DNA of 64,000 bases, taken from Escherichia phage iGC_PHA_EC001. The DNA is taken from sequence record OR437326.1. One strand, given 5' to 3'. A model generated the notes under the pieces. That model ran no database searches and was not told where the DNA came from. It saw only the letters and a program-made list of their open reading frames with translations. A program made the position numbers and the translations under genes. Shown piece after piece: positions 12,824-22,366 of the stretch (position 1 is its first letter; the number at the start of each line of letters is the position of its first letter).

Positions 12824-13084
12824 TTACTCCGCAATTTGAGCCATGAGATCACGCAGTTCGGTAAAACCGCCTACGTATGTTACCTCCCCGTTCACTTCAG
12901 ACAGAATTTGTGGAAATGTGCGTGGAGGAACTCCGGTAAGATCAACAACTGTTTTAGTCATTGATTCTAAATCATAGTCTTGATCAAGACTTAAATATTC
13001 AAACTGTTTATTGCGCATGGTTAATAGTTGTTTTGACATTTCGCAAAATTGACAGTTAGGTTTACCAAAAATTACAAATTCCAT
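12824..13084 (-). CDS. glutaredoxin/NrdH-like thiol-disulfide oxidoreductase
   Basis: N-terminal FGKPNCQFC CxxC active-site motif in an 86-aa protein; RBS AAGGAGAGG; start overlaps rmlD stop. Confidence 0.6.
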   Translation of the reverse strand: MEFVIFGKPNCQFCEMSKQLLTMRNKQFEYLSLDQDYDLESMTKTVVDLTGVPPRTFPQILSEVNGEVTYVGGFTELRDLMAQIAE

Positions 13085-13926
13085 TACCTCTCCTTATTAA
13101 GTAATACTGCTAAAGACTGTTCAATACCTTTATTTAAATCTGATTTTGTAAGATAGTGACTGGTTACTAGTTGTGACTTCACCGGACGTGCTGCTGGAGC
13201 ATTATAGGTTGAAGCTGATACCGCCGATATCTTAACAGGTTCTGGCATCTGTGTCAAGATCTTTTCCGCAAACTCCGCCCAAGAAATAAGATGGCTTCCT
13301 GCAAAATGGTAAGTCTTAACAGACCTTGACCAACCTGTTTTTAATACTTCAAAAATAGCTTCTGCTAAATCTGGAGCATATGTTGGACAAGAGAACTGAT
13401 CAGCAACAATAATAAAATCACGTTGTCCATCATTATAGCGAGACAACATGGTTTTTAGAAAGTTATTTCCAAATTCGCTATATACCGAGGCTGTTCGAAT
13501 AATATATGTATTTGGGTTAACTCCTCGCACCATTTTTTCACCAAGTTCTTTCGTATACCCATAATTGTTTATTGGGTTAGGTGTAGTATCTTCAAAAATA
13601 GGATGAGAATAATTAAAAATATAATCTGTAGAAATATGCACAAAATCAATTTTAAGTTTGCTGCACACTGCCGCAATATTTGCAGGTCCATACGCATTAA
13701 CAGCCAAAGCAGTAGCAAAATCATGTTCTGCTTTATCTACAGCCGTATAAGCGGCGCAATTAATAACCCCATCTACATAATCTTCAAGAATAGCGTTTCG
13801 CACAGCTTCAAAATTTGTAATATCTACACGTTCTTTAGGATAAGTTAAAGATACATTTGAAGGAGCCACTTTACGTAAAGCTTGTCCCAGTTGTCCATTA
13901 CCGCCCAATACCAGATATGTTAGCAT
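13084..13926 (-). CDS. rmlD: dTDP-4-dehydrorhamnose reductase (RmlD-like)
   Basis: Rossmann LGGNGQLG; INCAAYTAVDKAE and HISTDYIF match RmlD signature blocks; 280 aa. Confidence 0.8.
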   Translation of the reverse strand: MLTYLVLGGNGQLGQALRKVAPSNVSLTYPKERVDITNFEAVRNAILEDYVDGVINCAAYTAVDKAEHDFATALAVNAYGPANIAAVCSKLKIDFVHISTDYIFNYSHPIFEDTTPNPINNYGYTKELGEKMVRGVNPNTYIIRTASVYSEFGNNFLKTMLSRYNDGQRDFIIVADQFSCPTYAPDLAEAIFEVLKTGWSRSVKTYHFAGSHLISWAEFAEKILTQMPEPVKISAVSASTYNAPAARPVKSQLVTSHYLTKSDLNKGIEQSLAVLLNKER

Positions 13927-14486
13927 ACACCCTCGCTACGTAACTGTTGAAAAGATTTAGCCATTGCATCTTTTGTTGATAAGATAGGTTTAAAACCTTC
14001 GTCAAAAATCATATCGAAGCCCCAATCGATCCCTATGTCAGGATCATCCCAACGTAAACTTTGTTCACTAGAAGGGTCGTATGGAGTTGTGCATTTGTAT
14101 TCAAAGATCGCATCCATACTCAAAACTATAAAACCATGTGCCAAACCAGGAGGAAGCCAAAACTGCGTATGGTGTCGTGCACGAAGAACAACACCGTCCC
14201 AAGCACCGTAAGTTGGACTATCTTTACGTAAATCTACAGCGAAATCCAATACTTCCCCACTTACACAACGAACAAGCTTACCTTGCGGATTATTTGTTTG
14301 AAAGTGCATTCCTCGCAAAACACCGAAGTTTGATTTAGACATATTATCTTGAACGAAAGTTTGTTTACCAATGATATCTTCGTATTTTTGTTCATTGTAT
14401 GTTTCTAAAAAGAAACCACGATCATCTTTATAAACGTCTGGTTTGATAATTACCGCACCTTCAATTTTTGTTTTTTCTACTTTCAT
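13920..14486 (-). CDS. rmlC: dTDP-4-dehydrorhamnose 3,5-epimerase (RmlC-like)
   Basis: DDRGFFLETYN, GVLRGMHFQ, KLVRCVSGEVLDFAVDLRKDSPTYG, PPGLAHGFIVLS align by eye with RmlC/RfbC along whole length. Confidence 0.85.
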   Translation of the reverse strand: MKVEKTKIEGAVIIKPDVYKDDRGFFLETYNEQKYEDIIGKQTFVQDNMSKSNFGVLRGMHFQTNNPQGKLVRCVSGEVLDFAVDLRKDSPTYGAWDGVVLRARHHTQFWLPPGLAHGFIVLSMDAIFEYKCTTPYDPSSEQSLRWDDPDIGIDWGFDMIFDEGFKPILSTKDAMAKSFQQLRSEGVC

Positions 14487-14495
14487 TTTCTCTCC

Positions 14496-14822
14496 TTACC
14501 AGACATGTTGAGAAATAATAGTTTCCGTTTTAATGTTATATTTTTCAAGTAGCTCTGCATAGGCTTCTTTTGCATTCTCATTTACTTGCTCAAGATCTAC
14601 AGCTACGCTTCCTTCTCCGCCTTCTAAATAAATACCATATATGCAATAAGACTCATCAGCATCGTAGAAAGGAGAGATGCGACTTAAGTCAAGACCTTCT
14701 TGTAAGAACCAGTTAAAATCTCCGTCAAATTCTTCTTCAATTCTAGGGTCTTCTCCTACAGCCTCTTCCCATTTATTAAAAGGTGCACCCTGTAACATAC
14801 GCCATTCGATATCAATACCCAT
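14496..14822 (-). CDS. hypothetical protein
   Basis: 108-aa ORF in operon-like arrangement. Confidence 0.5.
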   Translation of the reverse strand: MGIDIEWRMLQGAPFNKWEEAVGEDPRIEEEFDGDFNWFLQEGLDLSRISPFYDADESYCIYGIYLEGGEGSVAVDLEQVNENAKEAYAELLEKYNIKTETIISQHVW

Positions 14823-15112: not shown

Positions 15113-15321
15113 TATTCCTCCTTAATTATTTCAAACTTGGCAACACCATTTACAATAATATGACCACAAGACATAACTCCTAGCCAAGGATCGCCGTTTT
15201 TCTTCAGGCGTTTACCGAATACATCACAAAAACCATTCTTCATTTCGGAGGCTTCATAAGAAGCCCCTTTGTCAAAAACGTCTTTGAATGTGTCGATTAT
15301 ACCAACACATCTCAAAATCAT
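15112..15321 (-). CDS. hypothetical protein
   Basis: 69-aa ORF immediately downstream of nrdB. Confidence 0.4.
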   Translation of the reverse strand: MILRCVGIIDTFKDVFDKGASYEASEMKNGFCDVFGKRLKKNGDPWLGVMSCGHIIVNGVAKFEIIKEE

Positions 15322-16406
15322 TAGAAGTCAAGCTCCTCATCATCAGAGAGATCTTTGTTAGCTGAATTCAATTTGTAATTAGTTAACTGAATCTCTTGGG
15401 CTGCTGACTGAATCAAATCAGGATTCAACCATTTTTCCATCCAAGCTAAAGGACTATGTTTAGGTGCTTTAAACTTGGCTTTCATTTTCAATCGACGATA
15501 AATAGGAGCAGCATTGAAATAAACCCACTGTTTAGACAATTCGGCGTTAAGACCTACAATAAAACGACCTTCACTAAACAGGTAGTCACACCACTGTTCC
15601 TCTTGTTCAACAACAGTGTCGAGGATCAAAGTCAACTCTTCAATATTATCTTCGTAAATTTTACGCCAAATTGGGTCATGCATCAATGCATCAATTACAG
15701 CATAATCCATCTTAACATGCAAGATTTCATCTAGCATAATTTTCTGGATCAGTTTACAAGCCCCAACAAACAGTTGTTGTTCTGCCATAGCAAAAGTAGC
15801 AGAGAAGGAAGATATAAACTGAATACCTTCTAATCCAATCAGGGCTACCATCCCTTTAAGAATCAGCAATCGAAGTTCATCGTTAGCTTCAATCAATCCT
15901 AGAGCATACTTATGACCAGCTTCTTCCAACTGACCCATGATATCAGCAATGATACCCATACGATTGAAAATTTTATCATTAATCATAATCTGATTGATGA
16001 CTTCAATTGGATCTGGAGTACATTGACGGATTATTTCAGAATACGTTAACGCATGGAGAACTTCCATTTCACTCTGCTTCATCATCATAGCACAGGCTTC
16101 ATTGTTACTCAAGAATGGAGAGAACAAAGTGATGATTGATTTTGCAAGAGAATCATTTTCCCATTGGAACGATAAGTTTTTAATCATAACATCATAGTTG
16201 TTTTTAGAACAAGCTACGAAATCTTTACGTGTCTGATCCAGATTAACTTCGTTTTCATCCCAATCTTGTGCTTTTTGAAGTTTGTAGAGTTTGTGCATTT
16301 CTGGATAAGTTACGTTAACAGAATCAAAGATCCCTAATTGCTCCCCCAAAAATACTGGATATTTTCCTGTTTTGTAAACTTCATTGTGTAAATTAATTGC
16401 TGCCAT
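15321..16406 (-). CDS. nrdB: ribonucleotide reductase class Ia small (beta) subunit
   Basis: 361 aa with ferritin-like RNR small-subunit architecture; adjacent to nrdA; RBS GAGGAGAA. Confidence 0.8.
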   Translation of the reverse strand: MAAINLHNEVYKTGKYPVFLGEQLGIFDSVNVTYPEMHKLYKLQKAQDWDENEVNLDQTRKDFVACSKNNYDVMIKNLSFQWENDSLAKSIITLFSPFLSNNEACAMMMKQSEMEVLHALTYSEIIRQCTPDPIEVINQIMINDKIFNRMGIIADIMGQLEEAGHKYALGLIEANDELRLLILKGMVALIGLEGIQFISSFSATFAMAEQQLFVGACKLIQKIMLDEILHVKMDYAVIDALMHDPIWRKIYEDNIEELTLILDTVVEQEEQWCDYLFSEGRFIVGLNAELSKQWVYFNAAPIYRRLKMKAKFKAPKHSPLAWMEKWLNPDLIQSAAQEIQLTNYKLNSANKDLSDDEELDF

Positions 16407-16442: not shown

Positions 16443-16449
16443 TTTATAT

Positions 16450-17106
16450 TTAGCCTCGAAATACTGTTTTTGTTTCCGCCAGGTGCCAATAGAAATCAGC
16501 TTTGTTTACAAGAGTGTTGTACACCTCTGGATAAAAATGTTCTTCCTCTTTGTAACGATCTGCTGTTTCCCTGATTGACTTAGCTTTATCCTTTAGCCAA
16601 GCGAAGTGTGCCTCTTCCTCTGTAGAGAAGTAGCCTAAATGCTTTCCTTTACTCCCAGAAGCTTTGGCATAAATCTTACCATCTTTCCTAACATGTGCTC
16701 CTAGTAAGTATTTTCTTTCATACCTCTTAGCATAACTTAAGAGTGTATTTATATAAGGAGGAACAAACCTACAATATTCAGGACAATAAACAGTATTTCC
16801 TTCAAGAACAAGATCTTTATCTAAAACAAAGCCTTCCACATTGTGTTCTTGATACCAGTTATCAAAGTTTGAAAAGGTGAACCAAGCATCACACACAGTA
16901 ACATCTTTATAACCTGGTCTAATGTTTTCCATACGATATGCACGATTAAACATGCCTTTCCAAGCTGCATAGGAAGGGTCTATGAATGTATTAACCCTTT
17001 TCCCATTGATAACACCACCTTCCCACAATCTACGTTCAACATCCACAATCAAGGGGATTTCTCCCCTCTCTGTGAGAACGGTAACTTTACGTTTACCCTT
17101 CTTCAT
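16450..17106 (-). CDS. putative free-standing homing endonuclease (AP2-like DNA-binding domain)
   Basis: sits between nrdA and nrdB, a classic homing-endonuclease site in phages; C-terminal GKHLGYFSTEEEAHFAW resembles AP2 domains of phage HNH/AP2 endonucleases; catalytic motif not confidently seen. Confidence 0.45.
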   Translation of the reverse strand: MKKGKRKVTVLTERGEIPLIVDVERRLWEGGVINGKRVNTFIDPSYAAWKGMFNRAYRMENIRPGYKDVTVCDAWFTFSNFDNWYQEHNVEGFVLDKDLVLEGNTVYCPEYCRFVPPYINTLLSYAKRYERKYLLGAHVRKDGKIYAKASGSKGKHLGYFSTEEEAHFAWLKDKAKSIRETADRYKEEEHFYPEVYNTLVNKADFYWHLAETKTVFRG

Positions 17107-17117
17107 CTGTTCTCCTA

Positions 17118-19361
17118 CTACATTTTACAGGCACTACACCCTTCGTCTTCAGAATCTTCTTGTGCTAAAGAATCTGCTGATTTTGTTCTACTGTTAAGGT
17201 AATACAATGACTTACCACCCAGTCTAGCAAAGTTCAAAATAAATTTCATCTCTTCTTTAACTGATAAACGTCCCCCTACCAATTTAGAATAATCTAGCCA
17301 AGAATCACAAGAAATTCCTTGGTCCGTAAACTTGGTAAAGATACCATACATTTCTGCAAGATCTTTAGCCGGAGTATCCCAGGCAGACTGGTAAAACATT
17401 TTCAGTTTTTCGTAGTCTGGAACAATAAATAATACACTACCTTTCTGACTTTGTTTATACATAATAGTATCACGAACAGGATACAGAGAGTTAGTAGTAT
17501 TGCTTACCAAACTGCTGGACTCATTAGGTGCAATAGCAGCCAAGACACTGTTACGGATACCACCTTGTTCAATGATTTCAGCACGTAAGCCTTCCCAGTC
17601 CATTTTAAGATCAAAATTACCGATACTATCTACTGTTTTAGCATAAGTGTCAATTGGTAGCCAACCTTGAGGCCATTTGGTCTTATCGATCCATTCTGCA
17701 TTACCTTTTTCCTTAGCCAGACGCAGAGAGGCTTTTGCCAACCAAAAGTAATGACGTTCTGCAAGTTCATGCATTAATTTTTTAGCATAAGCATCTGAAT
17801 AATTTACAAAATTACTTGCCAAGTAATGCGCTAAGTTTGTAATGCCTACACCAATAGATCTACGTGCTTTAGCAGTTATTTCGTTATGTTTAAATGGATA
17901 ATCCATTGTTTCAATAACGTTGTCAATTGTCAATACAGTGTAATATGCAACATCCTCATATTCTTCAGGTAAGACACGACCAGCAACAATAGAAGATAAG
18001 AAGCATAAAGCCAATTCTTGATCTTCTGTATTCTCACCAGTAAAGAGATCCGGCATACTGTGGAAAGCTTTAGTTGGTAAGAAGATCTCTTGACACAGGT
18101 TTGATTGATACACCGTATCCAGGAAAGGTGTATGGTTGTTAACGTTGTCAGCAAAGAACATGTAAATACGTCCTGTTTCTGCACGTTGAACAATAATCTC
18201 TGTCAGAAGATCACGAGCCTTAACAAATTTTTTCTTAATGCGACGACGGCTTACTTTGTCATAAACTGCATCAAACTCTTCTTCACTTTTATACAAAGCT
18301 TCATAAAGTTCAGGAGCATCATCACAACTAACTAACATCCAATCTTCGTTTTTTGCTGCTCGACGCAAGAACGAACGGTTAACAACAATAGAATAATCTA
18401 GTTTGTCTACTCGTTTATCTATAGGTGTTGTTGGATTCTTCAGTCGAATTAGATCGTCGAAGTCTGGTTCAAGTATGGTAAAGGTAACTGTAGCACTACC
18501 TCCACGACTTGCTTGCTTCGAAGCTCCAACACTATCTTCCATCCATTTCAGATACGGAAGAAGACCACCATGAATAATACGATTATTCTTAACACCTTGA
18601 CCTGTGGCACGAGTTTGAAGATTAACACCAATACCTGCGTTATTCAACGTATACTCATGAGCTAAGTAATTAGCAATGGCTAAAGATTCTGCCGTATCGT
18701 CTGCACGGAATAAGCAACAAGACGCACTTCCTTTGATTGGAGTTCGTAGAGTTGTCAGATACGGCGATGGCAGATTAATCTTAAGATCGCTAACATAAGT
18801 ATAAAGTTTTTTAATATCTTCTATACGGCGTTCTTTTGGTTGGATCTCCATAACCTTCATTGCGATACCAATGAAAAGAAACTGTGGAGACTCATGCACC
18901 ACATCGTTTACTGCATCTCGAATAAGATATTTATCTACCATCTGACGTAAAACAGAATAACCATAAGTTAGATTTTTATTATGCTTTACAATCTTACCGA
19001 TTTCTTTGATCTCTTCATCAGTATAATCCATTTTATCCCAATGTCCACGTTCTACCATATCATGATAAAAGGTATTCAGTGAAGGGATACTGTGGTATCC
19101 CCCATGAGCCTGTTTGTAAATCATACCCAGAAGAAGTCTTCCTGCCATATCACTGTAAGCTTGTGTTTTCTTGTCAATACACGCTGCAATCATTGCTTTA
19201 TGCAGATCACGTGTAGACACACCGTCATAACACCGCTTCACAGCTTCTAATTCAATTTCAGACCAGTTTAGTTTACCTGCTGCAAATTCAGACCACTTGC
19301 GAAGTTTTTCTGGATTAAACTCCTCTGTCTTACCGTTAGATTTAGTTACAAAACGAATCAA
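17118..19361 (-). CDS. nrdA: ribonucleotide reductase class Ia large (alpha) subunit
   Basis: 747 aa; N-terminal ATP-cone-like region, conserved Cys-containing blocks and C-terminal Cys pair (CSACKM); TTG start after GGGAGGAG RBS. Confidence 0.9.
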   Translation of the reverse strand: MIRFVTKSNGKTEEFNPEKLRKWSEFAAGKLNWSEIELEAVKRCYDGVSTRDLHKAMIAACIDKKTQAYSDMAGRLLLGMIYKQAHGGYHSIPSLNTFYHDMVERGHWDKMDYTDEEIKEIGKIVKHNKNLTYGYSVLRQMVDKYLIRDAVNDVVHESPQFLFIGIAMKVMEIQPKERRIEDIKKLYTYVSDLKINLPSPYLTTLRTPIKGSASCCLFRADDTAESLAIANYLAHEYTLNNAGIGVNLQTRATGQGVKNNRIIHGGLLPYLKWMEDSVGASKQASRGGSATVTFTILEPDFDDLIRLKNPTTPIDKRVDKLDYSIVVNRSFLRRAAKNEDWMLVSCDDAPELYEALYKSEEEFDAVYDKVSRRRIKKKFVKARDLLTEIIVQRAETGRIYMFFADNVNNHTPFLDTVYQSNLCQEIFLPTKAFHSMPDLFTGENTEDQELALCFLSSIVAGRVLPEEYEDVAYYTVLTIDNVIETMDYPFKHNEITAKARRSIGVGITNLAHYLASNFVNYSDAYAKKLMHELAERHYFWLAKASLRLAKEKGNAEWIDKTKWPQGWLPIDTYAKTVDSIGNFDLKMDWEGLRAEIIEQGGIRNSVLAAIAPNESSSLVSNTTNSLYPVRDTIMYKQSQKGSVLFIVPDYEKLKMFYQSAWDTPAKDLAEMYGIFTKFTDQGISCDSWLDYSKLVGGRLSVKEEMKFILNFARLGGKSLYYLNSRTKSADSLAQEDSEDEGCSACKM

Positions 19362-19377: not shown

Positions 19378-19632
19378 TTAATGCATATTCAAAACATCTA
19401 CATCATAACCGAACTTCATTTCATTAAAAAGTCCATTAGCATATAGAAAACCTTCAAAATGAGTTATGTCATCAAACCCTTTTGCTTTTGCTCGACGGTC
19501 TGCTTCTTGTCTTTTAGGAGATAAACGTTTTGAAGTGTCTAGAATTACAGTTACATTACAACCAACAGTTTCATCAAAATAGACTTCGATTTCACAGCCT
19601 TCATATTTATTATCAGTCATTGTCCCTCTCAT
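19378..19632 (-). CDS. hypothetical protein
   Basis: 84-aa ORF. Confidence 0.45.
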   Translation of the reverse strand: MRGTMTDNKYEGCEIEVYFDETVGCNVTVILDTSKRLSPKRQEADRRAKAKGFDDITHFEGFLYANGLFNEMKFGYDVDVLNMH

Positions 19633-20040
19633 TGATTAGTATCATCTGCTTTCGCAGGATCATAAGAGTTACCGAAATCATCCATCTTAATATGTGACGC
19701 ACCCCAACCTGTAAATTCTTCATCACCAAAATGAAAAATATCATTTTCTTGATAGATTCGTTTAAAACCACAATTAGGTGAAACAGGGAAAGTGAAAAGC
19801 GTTGTATTTGCAAACACTACCCGCTTATCGTTATTGCTTCGGATATTCACATTACGCTCAACAGAATAATGTGAATCTTCAGCCATACCCAGCATTACAA
19901 GCGACGCTCTAATAACAGCATTTTGTTTCTCGTGTGGGATATTGCCATTGTGTTTATTTGATTCTAGTTTCCAGATAGGGGTAGACATTACAGTAGACAT
20001 GCTTACGGTAGCCCAAGTTGTAGTATTTACTAATGACATA
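19629..20040 (-). CDS. hypothetical protein
   Basis: start set at MSLVN after GAAGGAGAAAAT RBS; the track's upstream ATG would translate through a GC hairpin. Confidence 0.45.
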
Positions 20041-20056
20041 TTTTCTCCTTCGTTTT

Positions 20057-20080
20057 GAATGGGAGGACTCACCTCCTCCC
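20057..20080 (-). other. perfect inverted repeat GGGAGGA(GG/..)TCCTCCC, stem-loop between ThyX-like gene and next gene
   Basis: plus 20057-20080 gggaggactcacctcctccc; no strong T-run, so regulatory or processing hairpin rather than canonical terminator. Confidence 0.4.
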
Positions 20081-20137
20081 AGTATTGTGCTATATTATAC
20101 TAAAACTAATACTAAAGTCAATAACTATTTAAACAGA

Positions 20138-21136
20138 TCACCATTTAGTATGATTTGTTAAAAGTTGACGATGTTGAATCCAGCCTTTGAAATTGCCAGA
20201 CCAAAACTTACCATTACGATCTACATGGGTAATACCTGGTTCCCAAGAGTTAAAATCCCAAGGAGCATTGATAAACAAATCTTCAAAACAGTTCTCTCCA
20301 TATTGTTCGCATGTTTCTTGCATTGGAGTGGCTTGATGTTCAAACGGAGAAGCATGAACCTTGCGCCCAGTCAGCAAGCGACCATAGATATCTAAAGCTT
20401 TATCTTTAGTTGCATTTAAACGACGATAGCTAACCTGTGCACAACACGAAGCTGAAATAGCTTTGGCTTCTTCCAAAGTAAGCACAACGACTTCTCCAGA
20501 TTCATCTTGAACGTAGTATCCACCAAAAACAAAATGATCGTCACCTTCTGTGCCAATAGTATCATAGAAATGGTCTACATAAGGTGTGTGCCATTGCCCT
20601 GGTTTCAGCACTTCTGGTGTAGATCCTTCATACTCTTTGTGCATCTCTTTAGCCAAAGCTTCGATAGTAGGATCGGCTTCTTTGTCATCACGTAGCCACC
20701 AGAAATTTTCATATTCTGTTGCTGTCAGAACTGTTTTAATTCGTTGGAAAGGTTCCAGAAGACGGTTTGCAACTTGTTTATGGTACCCTGCCAAAGAGAA
20801 TTCTTCTGCAAAACGTGCTGCACTAAGCGCGGCAAGATCCCACCACTCTTGAGCAGTATAACCTGCATCAATAAGAGCGTCATGATCAACACCTTTATCC
20901 TGCATACCAGGCTGGTTAGCCCCAAAACGATAAGGACGAGCAGGTTGATTTCGCACCATTTCAATCAGTGTTTTAACAGGTATAGCACGGCTAGAAGCAG
21001 CATTACGACTGAACAGGCGGTGAGTCATCAATTCTGAATGAATAATACGTGGATATTCTAGTTCAAAAGTTACAATCTCTTTTCCGTCTTCAGTGATGGA
21101 ATGCGCAATAATACTAGCCGAAATCTGTTTTGTCAT
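20138..21136 (-). CDS. thyX: flavin-dependent thymidylate synthase-like protein (ThyX family, variant motif)
   Basis: THRLFSRNAASSR resembles ThyX RHR-x7-S-x-R motif (first Arg replaced by Thr); HASPFEHQ resembles HAQWE block; 332 aa, longer than typical ThyX. Confidence 0.6.
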   Translation of the reverse strand: MTKQISASIIAHSITEDGKEIVTFELEYPRIIHSELMTHRLFSRNAASSRAIPVKTLIEMVRNQPARPYRFGANQPGMQDKGVDHDALIDAGYTAQEWWDLAALSAARFAEEFSLAGYHKQVANRLLEPFQRIKTVLTATEYENFWWLRDDKEADPTIEALAKEMHKEYEGSTPEVLKPGQWHTPYVDHFYDTIGTEGDDHFVFGGYYVQDESGEVVVLTLEEAKAISASCCAQVSYRRLNATKDKALDIYGRLLTGRKVHASPFEHQATPMQETCEQYGENCFEDLFINAPWDFNSWEPGITHVDRNGKFWSGNFKGWIQHRQLLTNHTKW

Positions 21137-21145
21137 TTTTTATCC

Positions 21146-21754
21146 TTAGTTTTTAAAATTGTTCAAAGTGTTAAAAACATCCAAACATGTTAGCCACTGA
21201 TCTTCTAAACCTGTGATCACAACATTTGGTTTTTTCTTTAGTTCTTCTAGATGGTTATCTTTATAAGGCGTATTAAAATATATTTTAACCACTTCATCTG
21301 GAAAATATAGTAGGTTATCAGCCCTGTCATCTATTGCTATATCACAAGGCAATAAGTATTTTTCTTTCGTAGCAAAAAAGCCGTTACCAGATCCTTTGCT
21401 AAAATCAATCGTATCTAATGTTCTTAAAACATGCTTATGTTTAGAACTTAAGTGACCACCTTTTGTCACACTTGCGATCAAAAGATTGCTACCTTTCCTT
21501 GAAACATACTTTAAGAAATCTGGCATACCTGGAACAAAACCCATTGTATCATAGAGATGAGGATTATCCAGAAATCCGTAAGGATCTATATTGAACTCCT
21601 CCCTGAAACCAGGAAAGTAGTTGGTAAGATCATAGTCTGCATTTTTTGTGAATGTGTCTATCTTAACACCAAGTCCACTAATCTTATTCAACCATTCTAA
21701 CCAAGCAACATCTAATGGAGCCACAACTAAATCCCAATCACATACTATCTGCAT
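21146..21754 (-). CDS. HAD-superfamily 5'(3')-deoxyribonucleotidase-like protein
   Basis: N-terminal MQIVCDWDLVV fits HAD motif I DxDxV; size and context with nucleotide metabolism genes. Confidence 0.55.
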   Translation of the reverse strand: MQIVCDWDLVVAPLDVAWLEWLNKISGLGVKIDTFTKNADYDLTNYFPGFREEFNIDPYGFLDNPHLYDTMGFVPGMPDFLKYVSRKGSNLLIASVTKGGHLSSKHKHVLRTLDTIDFSKGSGNGFFATKEKYLLPCDIAIDDRADNLLYFPDEVVKIYFNTPYKDNHLEELKKKPNVVITGLEDQWLTCLDVFNTLNNFKN

Positions 21755-21790: not shown

Positions 21791-22366
21791 CTAACTTTCA
21801 ATTTCCTGCAATAGGATTTTGACTATTTGTTTACGGCGTTTTGCTACTGTGCTTTCAGGTTCTATTTTACGCTTCTTCAGCCACGCTTTATCTTTCTTAG
21901 CTCTACACAAAGCTATCGCTTCTTTTTCAGCTTTTGCTTCTTCAAAAGATATGCCTTGCTTGTCTGCATAAGCAAGAATAGAGTTGCACAATTTACAAAC
22001 CATTCGCAAATCTTCTTCTTTCACATAGATCAAACGGAAAACAAAAAGGGGAATATCCTCAAAACATTGAAGTTGTTTTGCTGCGTGAATATGATCCACT
22101 TGGAAGTCTTTCATTCCTCCTCTGTGTCCACATATTTCGCACTCACAATTCCAAACTTGTTTTGGTTTTCCAGTTTTCTTGTCTATCATCACATTGCCGT
22201 CTTTATCTACACGATCAACTTTAAAACGCCTTGCATTGATAACCTTAATTTTATTAGGGTGTCTCATCCATGCTTTTCTAAAACATCCCCTAAGATAAGT
22301 ATAAAATTCAGCTTGTGTTTTCCAGGGTGTTCCTTCACCCCACATTATTTTTGGTTCACCTGCCAA
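21791..22366 (-). CDS. HNH homing endonuclease
   Basis: CECEICGHRG ... FQVDHIH ... CKLCNS HNH/zinc motif; probable TTG start after GGTGAG RBS. Confidence 0.7.
   Translation of the reverse strand: MAGEPKIMWGEGTPWKTQAEFYTYLRGCFRKAWMRHPNKIKVINARRFKVDRVDKDGNVMIDKKTGKPKQVWNCECEICGHRGGMKDFQVDHIHAAKQLQCFEDIPLFVFRLIYVKEEDLRMVCKLCNSILAYADKQGISFEEAKAEKEAIALCRAKKDKAWLKKRKIEPESTVAKRRKQIVKILLQEIES

Follow-up and report, generated by a model that had tools for sequence, protein, structure and literature searches.

A rearranged phage family of ThyX-like proteins with three replaced active-site residues, probably a variant flavin-dependent thymidylate synthase

The window analysed here comprises 64,000 nucleotides of Escherichia phage iGC_PHA_EC001 (record OR437326.1), and it contains a gene for a protein resembling ThyX, the flavin-dependent thymidylate synthase. 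The phage is a Phapecoctavirus (phAPEC8-like) of the subfamily Stephanstirmvirinae, and across the 3.1 kb around the ThyX-like gene its closest matches, phAPEC8-like coliphages such as WPEC1, ukendt and phAPEC8, show 99.2–99.7% identity. From about position 1 to 34 kb of the window every gene lies on the minus strand, and the G+C content is about 38%. The ThyX-like gene sits in a block for the supply of deoxynucleoside triphosphates (dNTPs), in which the order is: a HAD-type deoxyribonucleotidase-like gene, the ThyX-like gene, two small open reading frames (ORFs), nrdA, an inserted ORF of 218 residues, and nrdB (Table 1). A sequence-only reading of this DNA had drawn attention to a ThyX-like protein of 332 residues bearing THRLFSRNAASSR in place of the canonical motif RHR-x7-S-x-R, and both the ORF and the translation of 20987-21025 (minus strand) agree with it exactly.

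Table 1. The ThyX-like gene, its segments and altered positions, and the genes around it (positions in the window).
Feature	Position	Strand	Basis or remark
ThyX-like coding sequence, 332 aa + stop	20138..21136	-	probable flavin-dependent thymidylate synthase, phage-specific rearranged subfamily
aa 1-19, first beta strand, direct hairpin to second strand without the canonical helix pair between	21080..21136	-	model, strands 6-14 and 20-29
aa 20-180, collinear ThyX core, beta2 through canonical C-terminal helix	20597..21079	-	Thy1 profile 59-190; alignments to Thermotoga maritima (Tm) ThyX
Variant ThyX motif THRLFSRNAASSR, T38-H39-R40...S48-S49-R50	20987..21025	-	canonical form RHR-x7-S-x-R
A51 codon, at lid tyrosine position (Tm Tyr91, Mycobacterium tuberculosis (Mtb) Tyr108)	20984..20986	-	follows R50 = Tm R90
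T140 codon, at FAD-phosphate-binding arginine position (Tm Arg165, Mtb Arg190)	20717..20719	-	ungapped alignment
aa 181-221, family-specific beta-rich insertion	20474..20596	-	W-H183-x-P185-Y motif invariant; model strands 188-194, 201-210, 216-219
aa 222-268, relocated helices alpha1-alpha2 and H-x-S/T-P-F-E-H loop (Tm ~19-62)	20333..20473	-	translation, HMMER, rearrangement tests
aa 269-332, family-specific C-terminal beta-rich module with GWIQHRQ	20141..20332	-	model strands 269-321
HAD 5'(3')-deoxyribonucleotidase-like gene, 202 aa	21146..21754	-	Pfam NT5C
HAD motif I, D6-W-D8-L-V10 (DxDxV)	21725..21739	-	sequence; D6 and D8 invariant
Two small ORFs, 84 aa and 147 aa, between ThyX-like gene and nrdA	19378..20072	-	no function assigned in PHROGs (15807, 15711)
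nrdA, class I ribonucleotide reductase large subunit	17118..19361	-	Pfam Ribonuc_red_lgC, E 1.8e-97; ukendt annotation
nrdB, ribonucleotide reductase small subunit	15321..16406	-	Pfam Ribonuc_red_sm, E 6.3e-33

From profile matches and a structural model, the protein has the fold of ThyX. It matches Pfam Thy1 (PF02511) with 33.4 bits (gathering score 24.8; E 5e-8) and PHROG 85 'thymidylate synthase' at E 1.6e-108, and the AlphaFold2 (AF2) monomer model has a mean predicted local distance difference test score (pLDDT) of 95.6 and a predicted template modelling score (pTM) of 0.92. In its native order, however, the protein covers only positions 59-190 of the Thy1 profile, against residues 22-174, and the Pfam and TIGRFAM matches alike begin only at residue 22. 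The remark that it is some 100 residues longer than usual for a ThyX stands, since solved ThyX chains have 216-270 residues and the Thy1 profile 191 positions. The relationship is a distant one. Searches of the PDB with the single protein sequence, or with a profile of close relatives, found no ThyX, whereas a profile of 124 family members reached Thermotoga maritima ThyX at E 2.5e-6; tblastn with T. maritima ThyX as the query left the gene undetected at E ≤ 1, and a structure search of BFVD returned other phage 'thymidylate synthases' only, which shed no further light on function.

Residues were mapped by ungapped HMMER local alignments to T. maritima ThyX, that is, from sequence rather than by superposition of structures (T. 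maritima numbering is chain numbering minus a 12-residue tag), and conservation was counted in an alignment of 124 diverse family members whose mean column identity is 27%. The motif THRLFSRNAASSR aligns ungapped to FRHRIASYNELSGR of T. maritima ThyX, which places T38, as had been proposed, at Arg78, the first arginine of the RHR motif; along the same segment H39 corresponds to H79, R40 to R80, S43 to S83, N45 to N85, S48 to S88, R50 to R90 and A51 to Y91. Late in the core 'vvtaTewdNffwLR' aligns ungapped to 'TVNARSLMNFLNLR', so pairing T138 with N163, T140 with R165, N144 with N169, L148 with L173 and R149 with R174. R125 corresponds to R147 within an aligned 'VA(N)R' segment, a pairing that recurs in the alignment of a rearranged construct described below, and R30 lies eight residues ahead of the motif, as do R87 of M. 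tuberculosis and R66 of Helicobacter pylori ThyX. In the loop that follows the helix pair, H261, S263, E266 and H267 correspond to H53, T55, E58 and H59.

On this mapping three canonical residues are replaced throughout the family: Arg78 by Thr38, Arg165 by Thr140 and Tyr91 by Ala51. Threonine occupies position 38 in 120 of the 124 sequences (arginine in two, lysine in two), which at a mean column identity of 27% is far beyond chance; alanine is found at position 51 in 124/124 and threonine at position 140 in 122/124. Thr38 is thus a hallmark of a large phage family and not a peculiarity of this phage; of the three replacements it was the only one noticed in the sequence-only reading. The canonical motif RHR-x7-S(-x-R) is therefore not present in its usual form, its first arginine being threonine, and no true RHR occurs elsewhere in the protein, the sole similar string being Q321-H322-R323. 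In published structures the first arginine of RHR forms hydrogen bonds to the isoalloxazine ring and to deoxyuridine monophosphate (dUMP), the arginine at Arg190 (M. tuberculosis) or Arg165 (H. pylori) binds the phosphates of flavin adenine dinucleotide (FAD), and Tyr108 of the M. tuberculosis enzyme covers dUMP C5 and flavin N5 as a lid (PMC6514825); in the T. maritima enzyme dUMP is bound by Arg78, Arg80, Ser88 and Arg90 (PMC3498832). The contact with dUMP ascribed to the first arginine in the sequence-only reading is thus borne out by both sources. As these accounts count the first arginine among the conserved contacts to dUMP and flavin and have the lid tyrosine shield the reaction centre, the family must have rebuilt this part of its active site.

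All the other catalytic positions are, on the same mapping, invariant or nearly so, with the exception of R40 (101/124). Among residues that bind or activate dUMP, S48 is kept in 123/124, R50, R125 and R149 in 124/124 each, and R30 in 119/124; H39, next to the altered position, is found in 124/124. At the flavin and folate site H261 (124/124), S263 (122/124), E266 (118/124), H267 (123/124) and N144 are retained, and the counterparts of Arg165 and Tyr91 are the positions replaced. Altogether 14 columns are invariant across the 124 sequences, H39, R50, R125, N144, R149 and H261 among them, and K120 in the core is also invariant. Compared with canonical ThyX (T. maritima TM0449, M. tuberculosis Rv2754c, H. 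pylori, and A674R of PBCV-1), then, the phage family keeps His79, Arg80 (mostly), Ser83, Asn85, Ser88, Arg90, Arg147, Asn169, Leu173 and Arg174, together with the His53-x-Thr55-Pro-x-Glu58-His59 loop, and shares ribonucleotide reductase as a genomic neighbour, but it has Thr38, Thr140 and Ala51 for Arg78, Arg165 and Tyr91.

The family differs from canonical ThyX also in the order of its chain. In a single HMMER search positions 213-258 of the family profile align to residues 31-74 of the T. maritima chain (alpha1-alpha2 and the HGHETPFEH loop), while profile positions 23-52 align to residues 73-102; because these domains fall out of order on the T. maritima chain, the order is inverted relative to canonical ThyX. 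The collinear arrangement (beta1, then alpha1-alpha2-HxSPFEH, then beta2 with RHR) is not found, and the segment that should stand between beta1 and beta2 is encoded after the core, which itself bears R30, T38-H39-R40, S48, R50, A51, R125, T140, N144 and R149. With residues 222-268 placed in silico between residues 19 and 20, the match to Pfam Thy1 scored 46.3 bits instead of 30.2-33.4 and covered profile positions 14-190 instead of 59-190. Against the single T. maritima ThyX sequence the rearranged construct scored 14.1 bits and the native protein 3.5 bits; controls with a shuffled insert (n=100) gave 4.7 +/- 1.4 bits with a maximum of 10.9, and constructs with other segments inserted gave 3.9-4.1 bits. 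The alignment runs unbroken over the artificial junction (HASPFEHQeIVTFELEYPRIIHSELMTHR). The T. maritima sequence used for the construct test agrees with the fragments seen in the HMMER alignments. The rearrangement is a property of the family: HxSPxEH lies C-terminal of the THR motif in 220/220 single-domain relatives that have both motifs.

The AF2 model is in keeping with this order. Strand beta1 (residues 6-14) runs directly into beta2 (20-29) and the core continues as far as a helix at 156-171; there follow a three-stranded insertion (188-219), helices at 221-234 and 244-255, the PFEH turn, and a beta-rich tail. It may be inferred that residues 222-268 are equivalent in three dimensions to the canonical helix pair and loop. 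A relocated canonical segment then accounts for some 47 residues, roughly half of the surplus length, and the truly new parts are residues 181-221 and 269-332, two modules which add about 105 residues to what is seen in canonical ThyX and have invariant residues of their own (H183, P185 and R323 in 124/124 each, Q321 in 120/124, N315 in 118/124). The C-terminal half taken alone (residues 181-332) has no Pfam match. The four sequences with arginine or lysine at position 38 also deviate at positions 303/304 and 313 in the C-terminal module, which hints weakly at packing of the module against position 38. Separately, the string GWIQHRQ was considered as the remnant of a second RHR motif left by internal duplication, and was rejected: comparisons with hhalign of residues 1-60 or 1-180 with residues 181-332, 269-332 and 185-222 gave probabilities below 1%.

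Within its family, which is very common in phages and is annotated as thymidylate synthase, the window protein is nothing out of the ordinary. It is identical to its counterpart in phage nieznany, and identity throughout the genus is 99-100%. An exhaustive HMMER search (E ≤ 1e-3) returned 4,986 clusters at 50% identity, 1,614 of them at E ≤ 1e-30, and at least 6,875 clusters at 90% identity match the family. By tblastn the gene is present in 1,034 cultured phage genomes of the 50,697 searched, including those of phages of Escherichia (284), Pseudomonas (243), Vibrio (89, including ICP1), Klebsiella (51) and Caulobacter (41); it is carried also by N4-like podoviruses, where it is named 'N4 gp30-like', and by rV5, Pakpunavirus and phiCbK-like phages. 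The 'putative thymidylate synthases' of N4 (gp30), rV5 (gp106), phAPEC8, phi92-like phages, ICP1, and PAK_P1/KPP10-like and phiCbK-like phages share 32-100% identity over 97-100% of the length, with the same architecture and motif order, and owe their name to similarity (PMC3606486, PMC2784036). When 185,579 species genomes were scanned with patterns taken from close relatives, 10 loci came up; because all of them are on contigs (7-129 kb) of metagenome-assembled genomes (MAGs), the family looks essentially viral within the reach of that scan. These loci look like phage contigs mis-binned into bacterial MAGs. Two of them, in MAGs of different phyla labelled 'Bermanella sp.' (L089) and 'Opitutia bacterium' (L090), match the query equally well in identity, coverage and E-value, and their contigs measure 62 and 66 kb.

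Relatives of 520-680 residues, considered as possible tandem duplications, proved from phmmer domain maps and Pfam to be single proteins split by inteins of about 310 residues that carry endonucleases, either HNH together with Intein_splicing or LAGLIDADG (P0128, P0144, P0149, P0156, P0171, P0192, P0201, P0215, P0224 and P0248). There are at least four insertion sites, each within one of the best-conserved motifs: after T38-H39-R40 ('...VHN|CFSRN'), near residues 50-55, near R149/D150, and before S263 of HxSPFEH. Homing inteins characteristically occupy the conserved active-site motifs of working enzymes. Their presence at the THR, S263 and R149 sites therefore points to selection of the kind that acts on the conserved active sites of working enzymes.

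The neighbour of the ThyX-like gene had been taken for a HAD deoxyribonucleotidase with a DxDxV motif, an assignment that the family comparisons uphold. The protein begins MQIVCDWDLV and matches Pfam NT5C (PF06941) at 26.1 bits (cut-off 24.8), and across 12 homologues D6 and D8 (motif I), S95 (motif II), K132 (motif III) and D143 (motif IV) are invariant, D142 being nearly so. A search with the single sequence matched no solved structure; its family profile matches human mitochondrial deoxyribonucleotidase (mdN, 1mh9) at E 3.3e-5, and also a putative bacterial 5'(3')-deoxyribonucleotidase (3bwv), over residues 5-175. Judged from these motifs, an NT5C-type deoxyribonucleotidase is a credible assignment: like human mdN and its cytosolic counterpart cdN it has DxDxV in motif I, serine in II, lysine in III and the aspartate pair in IV, although it is very distant from them and its adjacency to the ThyX-like gene is found mainly in closer relatives. 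The phage protein probably trims pools of deoxynucleoside monophosphates; mammalian mdN prefers dUMP and deoxythymidine monophosphate (dTMP). The HAD gene lies upstream, and with 9 nt between its stop codon and the start of the ThyX-like gene the two are probably co-transcribed.

The setting in dNTP supply, which had been put forward from the proximity of nrdAB, holds here and in diverse loci. Two flanking ORFs on each side were surveyed at 80 viral loci (42-72% identity), and they included NT5C (10, by Pfam), ribonucleotide reductase small (9) and large subunits (7, plus 3 of class II), MazG (6), thymidine kinase (4), GMP reductase/IMPDH (4), the N-domain of dATP/dGTP diphosphohydrolase (3) and thioredoxin or glutaredoxin (3). 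By tblastn, 16 of the 80 loci have a HAD homologue upstream of the ThyX-like gene, an adjacency kept in the supergroup of rV5-, phAPEC8- and PVP-SE1-like phages and at a few distant loci, so that the pairing is recurrent but not obligatory. The two small ORFs of 84 and 147 residues are kept in the closest loci only (6/80). Among the 25 commonest Pfam families per flank there was no base-modification kinase, transferase or glycosyltransferase. In N4-like roseophages the gene is paired with a dCMP or dCTP deaminase (PMC2784036, PMC11981692). Neither ThyA, a canonical ThyX, dihydrofolate reductase, Dut nor Dcd was found in the window or in about 143 kb of phage ukendt, by its annotation and by tblastn at E < 0.1 with ThyA, FolA, Dut, Dcd and Tdk of E. 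coli and T. maritima ThyX as queries; the part of the ukendt record searched was all but ~50.0-56.5 kb and the last 1 kb.

It is likely that the ThyX-like protein is the phage's own, genuine variant of flavin-dependent thymidylate synthase, making dTMP for phage DNA. Ordinary dTMP synthesis is favoured because several lines of evidence combine: conservation, the inteins, the neighbourhood, the lack of any other thymidylate synthase in the sequence searched, and sensitivity to restriction. On the last point, Vequintavirinae and their phi92-like and phAPEC8-like relatives have been described from BASEL data as 'exceptionally susceptible' to restriction-modification systems (PMC8594841), and Druantia III and ARMADA II act on Stephanstirmvirinae but spare the hypermodified T-even phages (PMC13463889), which implies that the DNA of these phages is ordinary thymine DNA. 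As in canonical ThyX, the enzyme would bind a flavin that is reduced by NAD(P)H; the reduced flavin would take the methylene group from 5,10-methylene-tetrahydrofolate and pass it to C5 of dUMP, and reduction would follow. From established ThyX biochemistry the products would be dTMP and tetrahydrofolate, so that no dihydrofolate reductase would be needed. Invariant basic or polar residues of the added modules and the core (R323, H183 and K120) would stand in for the two lost arginines at the phosphate and the flavin and for the lost tyrosine as a shield, so that the chemistry is preserved. The supply of dTTP for replication of a genome of 38% G+C would be raised independently of host ThyA and FolA, and the regeneration of tetrahydrofolate by ThyX chemistry would be the likely advantage.

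Several points weigh against this assignment. The host already has ThyA, so that genetics does not force a thymidylate synthase function on the phage gene. The score against the NCBIfam thyX equivalog (TIGR02170), 31.1 bits, is below the curated cut-off of 87.9. The arginine that contacts dUMP and the isoalloxazine ring is absent (PMC6514825, PMC3498832), as are the Arg165-type ligand of the FAD phosphates and the lid tyrosine that shields C5 and N5, and R40 itself varies. That R323, K120 or H183 compensates is a conjecture, the model being of a monomer and the ThyX active site being formed by three subunits. Finally, searches of the literature turned up no assay or structure of any member of the subfamily, no account of its variant motif or rearranged order, and no nucleoside analysis of phapecoctavirus DNA.

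The same replacements can be read as the mark of a different activity. With the lid tyrosine over C5 and N5 changed to an invariant alanine and two substrate- or flavin-binding arginines changed to threonine (roles as in PMC6514825), the methylene intermediate might be hydrated rather than reduced, giving 5-hydroxymethyl-dUMP or -dCMP, or be passed to another acceptor; the product would be the precursor of a DNA base modification, possibly glycosylated by way of the phage's dTDP-rhamnose genes and glycosyltransferases. Phapecoctaviruses do have rml genes in their DNA-metabolism region and four glycosyltransferase genes adjoining those for primase and polymerase, and Olsen et al. speculated that rhamnose glycosylates hydroxymethylated nucleotides (PMC7552041). 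We nevertheless consider such a change of chemistry unlikely. The family, with these substitutions, is present in 1,034 phage genomes, from many lineages not known for modified thymine (N4-like, ICP1, Pakpunavirus, rV5-like); the neighbours are dNTP-supply genes, with no modification genes among the commonest flanking families; relatives with dTDP-sugar genes are exceptionally sensitive to restriction all the same (PMC8594841); the known phage pyrimidine hydroxymethylases are of the ThyA type (PMC8989533); and the window phage has lost rmlA and rmlB, yet has kept a ThyX-like protein that hardly varies within the genus. The broader proposal, that the entire clade consists of flavin- and folate-dependent enzymes modifying C5 of pyrimidines at an open, solvent-accessible centre, either yielding 5-hydroxymethyl-dUMP or acting on another acceptor, is distinctly improbable on the same grounds. 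The suggestion in the sequence-only reading that substrate or chemistry may differ thus gained no positive support, the other catalytic residues being kept, no modification gene being found among the 25 commonest flanking Pfam families and relatives being restriction-susceptible.

A more conservative departure would leave the methylation intact and alter the nucleotide, the reshaped phosphate site recognising a different sugar phosphate so that UMP (as with PolB) or dCMP is methylated by the flavin-dependent enzyme. The residues that differ are indeed those that clamp the phosphate of the nucleotide, namely the first arginine of RHR and the variable R40. The arginines that recognise and activate uracil (T. 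maritima R147 and R174, here R125 and R149) are invariant, however, and the counterparts of S88 and R90 are kept. PolB, the UMP/dUMP C5-methylase of polyoxin formation in Streptomyces cacaoi (4p5a), has the canonical collinear order and matches no better than ordinary ThyX structures (E 1.9 and 10.6 bits against the family profile, far below T. maritima ThyX), and it serves antibiotic biosynthesis, whereas the phage gene stands in the deoxynucleotide supply of a lytic phage (ribonucleotide reductase, thymidine kinase, dCMP deaminase; PMC2784036) and not in RNA or antibiotic metabolism. A change of nucleotide therefore seems very improbable. Least of all do we expect a catalytically dead derivative, a nucleotide- or flavin-binding regulator or a decoy that binds dUMP, inhibits a host enzyme or counters a nucleotide-depletion defence. 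The absence of three residues regarded as conserved in all ThyX (PMC3498832) and a score far under the equivalog cut-off would suit a dead enzyme, which is hard to square with 14 invariant columns at so low a mean identity, with homing inteins at the conserved motifs, and with a family that fills the thymidylate-synthase slot of phage nucleotide modules, no other thymidylate synthase having been detected in the window or in the ukendt sequence searched.

The rearranged order, the three family-wide active-site replacements and the two added modules appear, in combination, to be undescribed in the searchable literature. In ThyX enzymology and drug design the RHR motif, the FAD-binding arginine of the Arg165 type and the lid tyrosine pass for universal, and this phage family contradicts that view: it lacks all three residues and has part of its active site encoded out of order, yet it is under strong selection. 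Its carriers include the model phages N4, ICP1 and rV5 as well as therapeutic Pseudomonas phages, and the gene is among the commonest auxiliary nucleotide-metabolism genes of virulent Gram-negative phages, annotated purely by similarity. If the variant thymidylate synthase is active, it represents a second way of building a ThyX active site and offers a natural test of which contacts flavin-mediated methylene transfer truly requires. Should it prove to be something other than a plain thymidylate synthase, more than 1,000 genomes are misannotated and a nucleotide chemistry new to science is widespread. Were the C5-modifying activity real, N4-like, ICP1, rV5-like, phAPEC8-like and Pakpunavirus phages would all be using an overlooked nucleotide chemistry, which might feed the unexplained dTDP-rhamnose and glycosyltransferase genes of phapecoctaviruses.

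Some further observations concern the surroundings of the gene. Relative to phage ukendt the window phage has lost about 2.1 kb (L001 13984-16129) with rmlA, for glucose-1-phosphate thymidylyltransferase, and rmlB, for dTDP-glucose 4,6-dehydratase, and has about 270 bp (14495-14764) instead; rmlD (13084-13926) and rmlC (13920-14486) are kept. Because rmlA and rmlB are gone, the phage-encoded dTDP-rhamnose pathway is incomplete here. The glycosyltransferase genes of phage ukendt lie at 145.5-148.7 kb of its record (L083 45546-48690), four in succession beside genes for primase/helicase and DNA polymerase. A second difference from ukendt is an insertion of 706 bp between nrdB and nrdA (16443-17149), carrying the 218-residue ORF (16450-17106, minus strand), which has no Pfam match; the C-terminal 'LGYFSTEEEAHFAWLKDKA' of this ORF presumably resembles the AP2-type DNA-binding motif of phage homing endonucleases, and the insertion is probably a mobile homing-endonuclease gene within the ribonucleotide reductase operon. 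A terminator-like hairpin (16442-16429) lies just downstream of the inserted ORF.

In the 65-nt gap between the stop codon of the ThyX-like gene and the next ORF there is a sigma-70-like promoter (20094-20121, minus strand: TTGACT, 16 nt, TATAAT), with 11 of 12 consensus matches, from which the small ORFs and nrdA may be transcribed separately. Promoter-like sites between 16300 and 23300 are not enriched (25 as against 22.2 +/- 5.5 in shuffled sequence), and because of this no claim about operons is based on them. Upstream of the HAD gene, an ORF of 191 residues (21791-22366, minus strand) gives weak Pfam matches to HNH and Endonuclease VII (E ~0.03). Even so, 22 of the 80 diverse viral loci have a homologue of it no more than a few kb upstream of the ThyX-like gene, a position unusually well conserved for a supposed homing endonuclease.

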